The position numbers were made by a program, and so were the translations under genes. Below the pieces are notes generated by a model, which did no database searches, was not told the DNA's origin, and saw only the letters and a program-made list of their open reading frames with translations. Positions 34,114 to 35,041 of a stretch of 64,000 nucleotides of DNA are shown piece by piece (positions within the stretch are counted from its first letter, which is position 1; each line of letters begins with the position of its first letter). Source of the stretch: an uncultured bacterium (GTDB lineage Bacteria; Babelota; Babeliae; Babelales; Vermiphilaceae); assembly GCA_963781925.1 (NCBI GenBank), contig CAWAHQ010000002.1, positions 25,364-89,363 on the forward strand, written 5' to 3'.

Positions 34114-34581
34114 TCACTTTCTATCGAACGATTCGATAAGTGCCAACACTCTCGGGTCAACGTACTTCAGAGCAGTCTTACGCGGAGTCATGCCATTAAC
34201 TGACTCATCGGGATTAGCACCATGCTCCAATAAAAATTGTATTATTGGAATATTCCTCATCACTATGGCTAAATGCAACCCAAGATTAGGGTCGGCATTA
34301 TACTCTGCAAGCAATGTTTCTGCCGTCAAAAGATCGCCCTGAGATAGAGCAAGATACAGCAAGGACATTGCTATACCACCTTGTGTTCTATACATATCAA
34401 CTAAACCTGGCGTTGCTTTAAGAAGTGTAAAAATAGTTTGCCAATCACCCACTGCAAGCGCCTGATCTATCATTTTGAATTCGTTTGGGCGAATAACTCG
34501 AGGGCGAGCAGGCTCCATCGCATACACAACAACTCCGCTTACTAAAATCAGCATTCCCGACAATAAATATGACTTTTTCAT
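34114..34581 (-). CDS. Exported ankyrin-repeat protein, tandem paralog 1
   Basis: Start at MKKSYLLSGMLILVSGVVVYA-MEP (34581). ANK-type LHLAIVMRNIPIIQFLLEHGANPD. Confidence 0.7.
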   Translation of the reverse strand: MKKSYLLSGMLILVSGVVVYAMEPARPRVIRPNEFKMIDQALAVGDWQTIFTLLKATPGLVDMYRTQGGIAMSLLYLALSQGDLLTAETLLAEYNADPNLGLHLAIVMRNIPIIQFLLEHGANPDESVNGMTPRKTALKYVDPRVLALIESFDRK

Positions 34582-34591
34582 AAAAACTTCC

Positions 34592-35041
34592 TTACTTTCT
34601 ATCGAATGATTCGATAACTTCCAGCACATCAGAGTTTCTCTGCATCAGAGCAAGCTTACGCGCAGTCATACCTTCTTTGCGTGATTCATCAGGATTAGCT
34701 CCATGCTCCAATAAAAATTTTATCATTGGAATATCCTCATCGAATACGGCTAAGTATAGGGTCCGATTAAGATCAGCCCCGTATTTTTCAAGCAATATTT
34801 TTGCTTTCAAAAAATCACTCTGTCGTATAGTATAGTAAAGTAAGGTATATGCCCTGGGTGTTTCATACGCATCAACCAAGCCTGGCACTGCTTCAAGAAG
34901 ATCAAAAATAGTGTGCCAGTCGTGCTTTGCAAGTGCCATATCTATCATTCTAAATTCACGCGGACGAGCAGGCTCCATCGCATACGCAACAACTCCACTT
35001 ACTAAAATCAGCATTCCCGACAATAAATATGACTTTTTCAT
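34592..35041 (-). CDS. Exported ankyrin-repeat protein, tandem paralog 2
   Basis: Start at MKKSYLLSGMLILVSGVVAYA-MEP (35041). LYLAVFDEDIPMIKFLLEHGANPD. Confidence 0.7.
   Translation of the reverse strand: MKKSYLLSGMLILVSGVVAYAMEPARPREFRMIDMALAKHDWHTIFDLLEAVPGLVDAYETPRAYTLLYYTIRQSDFLKAKILLEKYGADLNRTLYLAVFDEDIPMIKFLLEHGANPDESRKEGMTARKLALMQRNSDVLEVIESFDRK

Follow-up and report, generated by a model that had tools for sequence, protein, structure and literature searches.

Short-tract gene conversion as the probable source of near-identical leader-coding ends in a tandem pair of ankyrin genes from a Babeliales bacterium

Why do two adjacent genes share almost every nucleotide of their leader-coding 5' ends when the remainder of both has clearly diverged? 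The question is raised by a tandem pair of ankyrin-repeat genes, here denoted A and B, in the window, i.e. the whole stretch of 64,000 nucleotides that was analysed (C2:25364-89363 of the assembly G000). G000 comprises 1.69 Mb in two contigs with 37.8% G+C; it is a long-read assembly, whose contig ends overlap at only 99.4% identity with many indels between them. Its gene set consists of our own calls (1659 ORFs). The closest available relative, a member of the same genus (G003), and a more distant one (G006) served for comparison. The G003 sample covers ~245 kb and gives 148 reciprocal-best orthologues with G000. Between these two species TyrRS, the tyrS product, is 87% identical at the protein level, and in housekeeping genes 0.55-0.67 of the sites encoding the same residue also use the identical codon. 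The two focal genes are the following:

34592-35041, minus strand: gene A, an ORF for a predicted exported ankyrin-repeat protein of 149 aa, first of the tandem pair
34114-34581, minus strand: gene B, an ORF for a predicted exported ankyrin-repeat paralogue of A, 155 aa

The pair is flanked by valS and a membrane-protein gene. Gene B starts 10 nt past the stop codon of gene A, and the two are probably co-transcribed. Both products score above the gathering cut-offs of the Pfam ankyrin families considered (Ank, Ank_2, Ank_3, Ank_4): A matches Ank_4, Ank_2 and Ank (Ank_4 with 32.7 bits, cut-off 22.7), and B matches Ank (32.3 bits, cut-off 21.1). An exact look-up of protein A in public assemblies returned no record. 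Read from the sequence, the N-terminus of A, MKKSYLLSGMLILVSGVVAYA followed by MEP, displays the n-, h-, and c-regions of a Sec signal peptide, and the leader of B is MKKSYLLSGMLILVSGVVVYA, likewise followed by MEP; the common form is MKKSYLLSGMLILVSGVV(A/V)YA, then MEPARPR. Judged by a positive n-region, an h-region of 10-15 residues, small residues at -3/-1, and no lipobox Cys, both leaders fit a predicted Sec-type (signal peptidase I) signal peptide, composed of MKK / SYLLSGMLILVSGVV / A-Y-A with the predicted cleavage before MEP.

The sequence-only reading that drew attention to the pair had counted about three differences within the first ~85 nt. The near-identity holds, but the count is five (nt 45, 56, 78, 81, and 84) when 34957-35041 is compared with 34497-34581 on the minus strand. 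Only two of the five fall within the first 77 nt, and the best-scoring tract, from -2 to +77, is identical at 77/79 positions, with mismatches only at nt 45 and 56:

34965-35043, minus strand: homogenised tract, copy in A, from -2 relative to the ATG to nt 77, comprising the 21-codon leader and MEPAR
34505-34583, minus strand: homogenised tract, copy in B, on the same evidence as the copy in A

Nucleotide identity amounts to 70/72 in the leader versus 258/372 (69%) in the mature part (Fisher p = 2e-8). At the protein level, 23/24 leader residues and 73/124 mature residues (59%) are identical, in agreement with the earlier description of the remainder as diverged and the proteins as roughly half identical. 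The contrast is also not flattened by a sliding window, the check proposed with that description: 45-nt windows show 0.96-0.98 identity in the first ~75 nt and 0.53-0.80 thereafter, with a secondary peak of 0.89 near nt 316, at the ankyrin motif LLEHGANPDES. Upstream of -2 the genes are unrelated (10/20 bases differ), since the region upstream of B is the 3' end of A, and the SD therefore lies outside the tract. A blastn-short search of the 1.69 Mb with the 94-nt leader region found no third copy, all other matches being <=17 nt; the further genome copies typical of a mobile or dispersed repeat were thus not found for this leader.

Synonymous sites distinguish similarity kept at the protein level from similarity of the DNA itself. 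According to Nei-Gojobori (NG86) estimates, dS between A and B is 0.065 in the leader versus 0.64 in the mature part, a roughly ten-fold difference; mature dN is 0.34, giving a dN/dS of ~0.5. Identical codons are used at 19/20 same-residue sites of the leader (0.95) and at 50/70 of the mature part; for so short a tract taken alone, this synonymous test is modest (binomial p ~0.01). The finding that was to speak against a DNA-level explanation, namely selection on amino acids alone with synonymous sites diverged, is not what the leader displays: its synonymous sites are homogenised.

G003 harbors a tandem pair of the same family in the same neighbourhood, adjoining tyrS and the same membrane-protein gene. 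The leaders of this pair, MKKSFFLSAILVLMSGAFVHG and MKRLSFLSALLMSVVVAYG, are identical at only 40/66 positions and use identical codons at 3/8 same-residue sites, and the leader dS of 1.14 matches the 1.15 of the mature parts. Between G000 and G003, ankyrin leaders are 0.70-0.75 identical, with identical codons at 5/10 to 7/11 same-residue sites, a neutral divergence. The A-B leader identity of 0.97 thus stands against 0.70-0.75 to either G003 gene, while an ML tree built from the four mature sequences is star-shaped. A test for gene conversion, as had been suggested for the pair, was carried out with an in-house implementation of a Sawyer-type permutation test, not with the GENECONV program. 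A single fragment stands out, A-B nt 5-74, which scores 27 over 241 polymorphic sites of the four-sequence codon alignment (p < 1/5000 both pairwise and globally); no other pair in this alignment is significant. Between the species, dS is 1.0-1.3. Since the A/B mature value of 0.64 is lower, the pair may be younger than the species split, or the entire genes may have been converted at an earlier time.

Some further features of the locus can be described. The G003 pair lies between tyrS and the membrane-protein gene (L021, G003:C7:2315-5552), whereas the G000 pair (window 33046-35041) is found beyond the membrane-protein gene, beside valS, so that the order differs. A palindromic repeat is located within the 350-nt spacer at 33763-34113. 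All four ankyrin genes end with the C-terminal motif IESFD(R/K)K (in A and B at window positions 34592-34618 and 34114-34140; in G003 in both genes of L021, G003:C7). Kept in the protein despite a fast-evolving body, this motif could be a functional C-terminal signal.

The 148 orthologue pairs provide a baseline for how leader codons evolve between the species. The proportions of identical codons at same-residue sites are:

Orthologues with no signal peptide: first 25 codons 0.674, rest 0.617
Orthologues with other signal peptides: first 25 codons 0.628, rest 0.596
Orthologues with Met-Glu (ME) leaders: first 25 codons 0.691, rest 0.648

Leaders are hence under no general nucleotide-level constraint. 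Since leader codons change at nearly the pace of the remaining codons, the value of 0.95 for A and B points to recent exchange of DNA.

To what extent this pattern is shared by other genes was followed in a genome-wide survey of codon alignments of all blastp paralogue pairs, with pairs <6 kb apart classed as tandem and the rest as dispersed. A self-blastn search for short high-identity segments at gene starts was abandoned in favour of these alignments because intergenic palindromic repeats, and spurious small ORFs within them, swamped its output. A leader excess above 0.15 was obtained as follows, the counts being pairs and not independent families:

Tandem pairs, ME leader: 16 of 45
Tandem pairs, other signal peptide: 20 of 100
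Dispersed pairs, ME leader: 3 of 44
Dispersed pairs, other signal peptide: 2 of 154

Leader excess is confined to neighbouring genes and is almost never seen in dispersed paralogues, in which the leaders are less conserved than the mature parts. The sister species has the same trait, as leader excess occurs in 5/15 tandem and 0/6 dispersed signal-peptide pairs of the G003 sample. Besides A/B, at least 10 independent tandem families of G000 carry leader tracts. The 5' ends of these tracts range from -2 to beyond -120 and the 3' ends from +52 to +329, with a cluster of the latter at +69 to +78, shortly beyond the cleavage site, a cluster biased by the choice of pairs according to leader excess. 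The proposal of gene conversion restricted to the leader thus stands with respect to conversion, for A/B and these further tandem families; strict restriction to the leader is contradicted by the spread of the 3' ends. Significant common fragments also occur in 3' gene parts (e.g. ~700 nt, C1 661594 vs 663650), so that conversion between tandem paralogues is general and the leader a favoured site rather than the sole one. A further example lies within the window:

25391-26047 and 26091-26678, minus strand: tandem exported paralogues, with 5' tracts at 25942-26068 and 26573-26698

The leaders of this pair are 0.84 identical versus 0.60 for the mature parts, identical codons are found at 13/13 versus 42/65 same-residue sites (p = 0.007), and the tract extends from -21 to +105 with 109/127 identical positions.

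Two larger families are of separate interest. In the region C1:656846-668017 of G000, five genes for large exported ankyrin proteins stand in tandem, with a leader tract from -36 to +69 (93% versus ~50% identity) and a 3' conversion tract of ~700 nt between two members. As G003 has one copy only, the family is a lineage-specific expansion and uninformative on concerted evolution, and it was dropped as a second orthologue test. The 185920 family (C1:185920-187725; in G003 a trio, L033, G003:C4:62000-65800) was clearly duplicated before the species split, as orthologues (60% identity) resemble each other more than the paralogues 185920 and 186784 do (36%). About 90% of its leader codons are identical across paralogues and species (12/13, 17/19, and 18/20), with mature parts and housekeeping genes at 50-70%. 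Since these leaders are alike between species, within-genome conversion does not explain them, which hints at some nucleotide-level constraint in some leaders. ME leaders without the two orthologue pairs of this family show 96/149 = 0.64 identical codons, which marks the 185920 pattern as a family-specific oddity.

Two other pairs of the window had been assigned the same pattern as A/B. One of them lacks it:

29054-31039, minus strand: tandem exported paralogues 29054-30079 and 30098-31039, with no leader excess at the DNA level

Here identical codons occur at 9/14 same-residue sites of the leader versus 90/145 of the mature part, so the proposed likeness to A/B is not borne out. Overall identity falls from 0.77 (leader) to 0.64 (mature part), and the best-conserved block is the 3' end (0.91-0.96) rather than the leader. 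In the permutation test with the G003 orthologue no leader fragment is significant; the leaders of all three genes are conserved as protein without a synonymous excess. The sole visible G003 orthologue (L021 144-1181) matches 29054 over the body with 69% identity. Its first eight residues, MSRTLSRL, are like those of 30098 (MYRILSRL) and unlike those of 29054 (MKKIIQQL), which makes it a small mosaic of the two (pairwise p = 0.003, global not significant).

The second pair belongs to a four-gene array:

7514-8709, plus strand: 7514-8020 and 8203-8709, older members of the array with only moderately similar leaders
8877-9107, plus strand: short exported Cys/Lys-rich protein of 76 aa, with a leader like that of the adjacent 9123; no Pfam match
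9123-9641, plus strand: a 172-aa exported protein from the 7514/8203/9123 tandem family; its C-terminal part contains a hydrophobic segment
8861-8929, plus strand: common block of SD plus leader, copy at 8877; the partner copy is at 9107-9175

The description of 8877 and 9123 as having near-identical leaders and unrelated mature parts proved correct: SD and leader are identical at 61/69 positions, the likeness reaching to nt 52 of the gene (blastn 89% over 66 nt), and the cargoes share no similarity. The 52-residue Cys/Lys-rich cargo of 8877 has no detectable similarity anywhere in the genome, nor in any frame of the neighbouring genes; a frameshifted remnant of a 9123-type gene was considered as its source and found unsupported by tblastx and blastn-short. 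Permutation tests of the 7514/8203 array (family F4) revealed no significant common fragments. G003 has the same four-gene array, including a syntenic orthologue of the Cys-rich cargo and a 9123 orthologue with 78% identity. The leaders are 0.84-0.91 identical between orthologues and 0.77-0.84 between paralogues. As the orthologues are at least as alike as the paralogues, the sharing predates the G000/G003 split, and the leader identities give no sign of homogenisation after it. In G006 four ordinary paralogues occupy the locus. On these sequence comparisons, the simplest reading is that 8877 would be a tandem copy that lost its cargo, or had it replaced, in situ.

The likeness of the A and B leaders could be ascribed to purifying selection on signal-peptide residues combined with codon preference, without any exchange of DNA. 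Signal peptides are functional, the leaders of 29054/30098 and their G003 orthologue are examples of protein-level conservation without synonymous excess, and synonymous identity in the first 25 codons is slightly raised in all gene classes (0.67 vs 0.62). Selection of this type does not produce a ten-fold drop in dS, ankyrin leaders differ freely between species and between the G003 paralogues, and in dispersed paralogues the leaders are even less conserved than the mature parts. Since conservation of leader codons hardly exceeds that of the remaining codons in the 148 orthologue pairs, amino-acid or codon selection is not the cause; this explanation is highly improbable for A/B and is largely refuted by the synonymous-site data. 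A related idea is that the leader DNA or RNA is itself functional, e.g. in translation initiation, mRNA targeting, or regulation, and is held constant by selection at the nucleotide level. The 185920 family would fit it, but RNA structure is not in excess from -30 to +90 of A and B (z = -0.04 and +0.71), the divergence of ankyrin leaders between species is neutral, the rise in the orthologue baseline is only 0.04-0.06 and is seen in genes without a signal peptide as well, and leaders of different families have no nucleotide motif in common. For A and B, such a function is very unlikely to be the reason.

Alternatively, A and B might be very recent duplicates whose mature parts were sped up by diversifying selection or local hypermutation, with the leader left unchanged. 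Exported mature parts do evolve fast, as A and its G003 counterpart share only 58% protein identity where TyrRS shares 87%, and the mature dN/dS of ~0.5 could be read in the same way. However, selection on the protein leaves the ten-fold higher mature dS unexplained, the two genes have no associated diversity-generating element or repeat, and the pattern recurs in families duplicated before the species split, such as 185920, which renders this history distinctly unlikely. The last proposal, also made by the sequence-only reading, is that a portable module, consisting of the leader alone or together with its SD, moves onto different cargo genes. It draws on 8877/9123, with SD and leader in common and unrelated cargo, and on nine leader-sharing pairs without detectable cargo homology. 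These nine belong to 41 leader-level nucleotide matches between signal-peptide genes, the other 32 having homologous cargo, and all nine are immediate neighbours; genome-wide, the leader matches among signal-peptide genes give no support for movement between unlinked genes. The A/B leader is confined to A and B with the SD outside the tract, and the 8877 arrangement is old and syntenic, with an ordinary paralogue in the G006 array. As a general mechanism the portable module is hence unsupported, only 8877 fitting the description of one leader with unrelated cargo, and it is highly unlikely to account for A and B.

Short-tract gene conversion between adjacent paralogues is therefore the probable origin of the A/B leader likeness. 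A and B would be adjacent genes for Sec-exported ankyrin-repeat proteins of an intracellular bacterium of the Babeliales (Dependentiae). A segment of ~80 bp, which begins at the start codon and ends shortly after the predicted signal-peptidase site, would have been copied recently from one gene onto the other by short-tract, non-reciprocal homologous recombination (gene conversion), and the remainder of both genes would have retained its older divergence. The tract is bounded on both sides, which argues against unequal crossing-over, as this would bring the upstream region along. The same conversion appears to recur among neighbouring paralogues of many exported-protein families in G000 and its sister species. 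The leader might be favoured because paralogues are alike enough there to seed recombination and because leaders would be functionally interchangeable; selection would purge tracts more often when they reach into the fast-evolving mature part, as mature parts may be intolerant of replacement. The recombination is presumed to be RecA-dependent. A recA gene is present in G000 (C1:~695650-696700; 419 bits to PF00154). It shows an apparent 5' frameshift, with the N-terminal ~25 codons in another frame than the rest, which may be real or a long-read indel error.

Comparable arrangements are known from other systems. In Helicobacter pylori, the paralogous outer-membrane protein genes babA and babB evolve in concert, through gene conversion at their ends. 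As in A/B, near-identical 5' signal-peptide segments arise by non-reciprocal recombination in short bounded tracts, with a divergent middle. A and B differ in being adjacent small ankyrin effector-like genes of an amoeba-associated member of the Dependentiae with no evident expression switching or phase variation, and their 3' end is conserved as protein yet lies outside the recent tract. In the vlp, vsp, and vsa lipoproteins of Mycoplasma, the 5' region with the signal peptide is highly conserved and the mature parts are divergent; these too form tandem families with almost identical leader-coding 5' ends and variable mature regions. The Mycoplasma variable lipoproteins have lipobox-Cys signals, conserved promoters, and dedicated switching mechanisms, whereas in A/B the leader ends with AYA followed by ME and no Cys stands at the junction, the tract leaves out the upstream region (the 20 nt upstream differ at 10 positions), and no switch is seen. 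Animal toxin and antimicrobial-peptide families combine conserved signal or prepro regions with hypervariable mature peptides, and they resemble the present case in the sharp contrast between conserved leader and fast-diverging mature part in tandem genes. Those families are eukaryotic and exon-structured, and whether selection or conversion is the cause is debated; here synonymous sites and the sister species point to conversion. The process as such is already known from the H. pylori bab genes and the Mycoplasma lipoproteins, so the conceptual gain is small, and what is new is the lineage and the documentation across many families. In phytoplasmas, the SVM signal-peptide motif (Pfam PF12113) is common to the effectors SAP11 and SAP54 (PMC8026896). 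The likeness is that, in an obligate intracellular bacterium, effectors whose mature parts are unrelated carry a conserved N-terminal export signal. SVM is a single motif of the whole family, tied to mobile units, whereas here each tandem family has its own leader, shared by neighbours only, and none of the seven proteins scanned matched PF12113 at E <= 0.01.

The junction of the A/B leader belongs to a type that is widespread in the genome. The pattern [AGSC]-Met-Glu at residues 11-45 is found in 166 genes, with 14 expected, and it follows a hydrophobic, acid-free stretch in ~151/1659 predicted proteins, often as MEP or MEL. AMEP was counted 28 times in N-termini, against two occurrences in the remaining proteome. 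Examples within the window are:

13137-13697: Met-Glu leader
29054-31039: Met-Glu leaders of the tandem paralogues
34114-35041: Met-Glu leaders of A and B
49950 onwards: Met-Glu leader

Junctions of a small residue with Met-Glu/Asp/Gln are also seen in loci of other Babeliales genera, families, and order-level relatives. The junction is not mentioned in the Dependentiae genome paper dealing with signal peptides (PMC6561590), nor was a mention retrieved by full-text literature searches. The 1.7-Mb genome also encodes two signal-peptidase-I-like paralogues (...YQVPTGSMETT...) at C1:388958-389932 (plus strand) and C1:1156355-1157329 (minus strand), with ~66% DNA identity. Conversion together with selection might help to maintain a dedicated export module, keeping the leaders of tandem effectors fitted to a lineage-specific route of processing or sorting as the cargo diversifies, a rather unlikely and speculative extension. 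If it held, the two signal-peptidase-I-like paralogues could serve such a route, the mature Met-Glu/Asp/Gln N-terminus would resemble a native eukaryotic N-terminus, and a leader read at the level of nucleotides as well would be in keeping with the between-species synonymous conservation of the 185920 family.

For the lineage, the findings bear on how its effector arrays have evolved. The A/B pair contains an internal clock, with a dS of 0.065 in the leader, 0.64 in the mature part, and ~1.0-1.3 between species, which supports layered recombination in such fast-evolving arrays of effectors. The 5' ends of tandem effector genes thus carry another history than the rest of the gene, a warning for annotation and phylogeny. 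Homologous recombination would be active in this bacterium and shape its secretome, in a phylum, the Dependentiae, that is known almost only from genomes.
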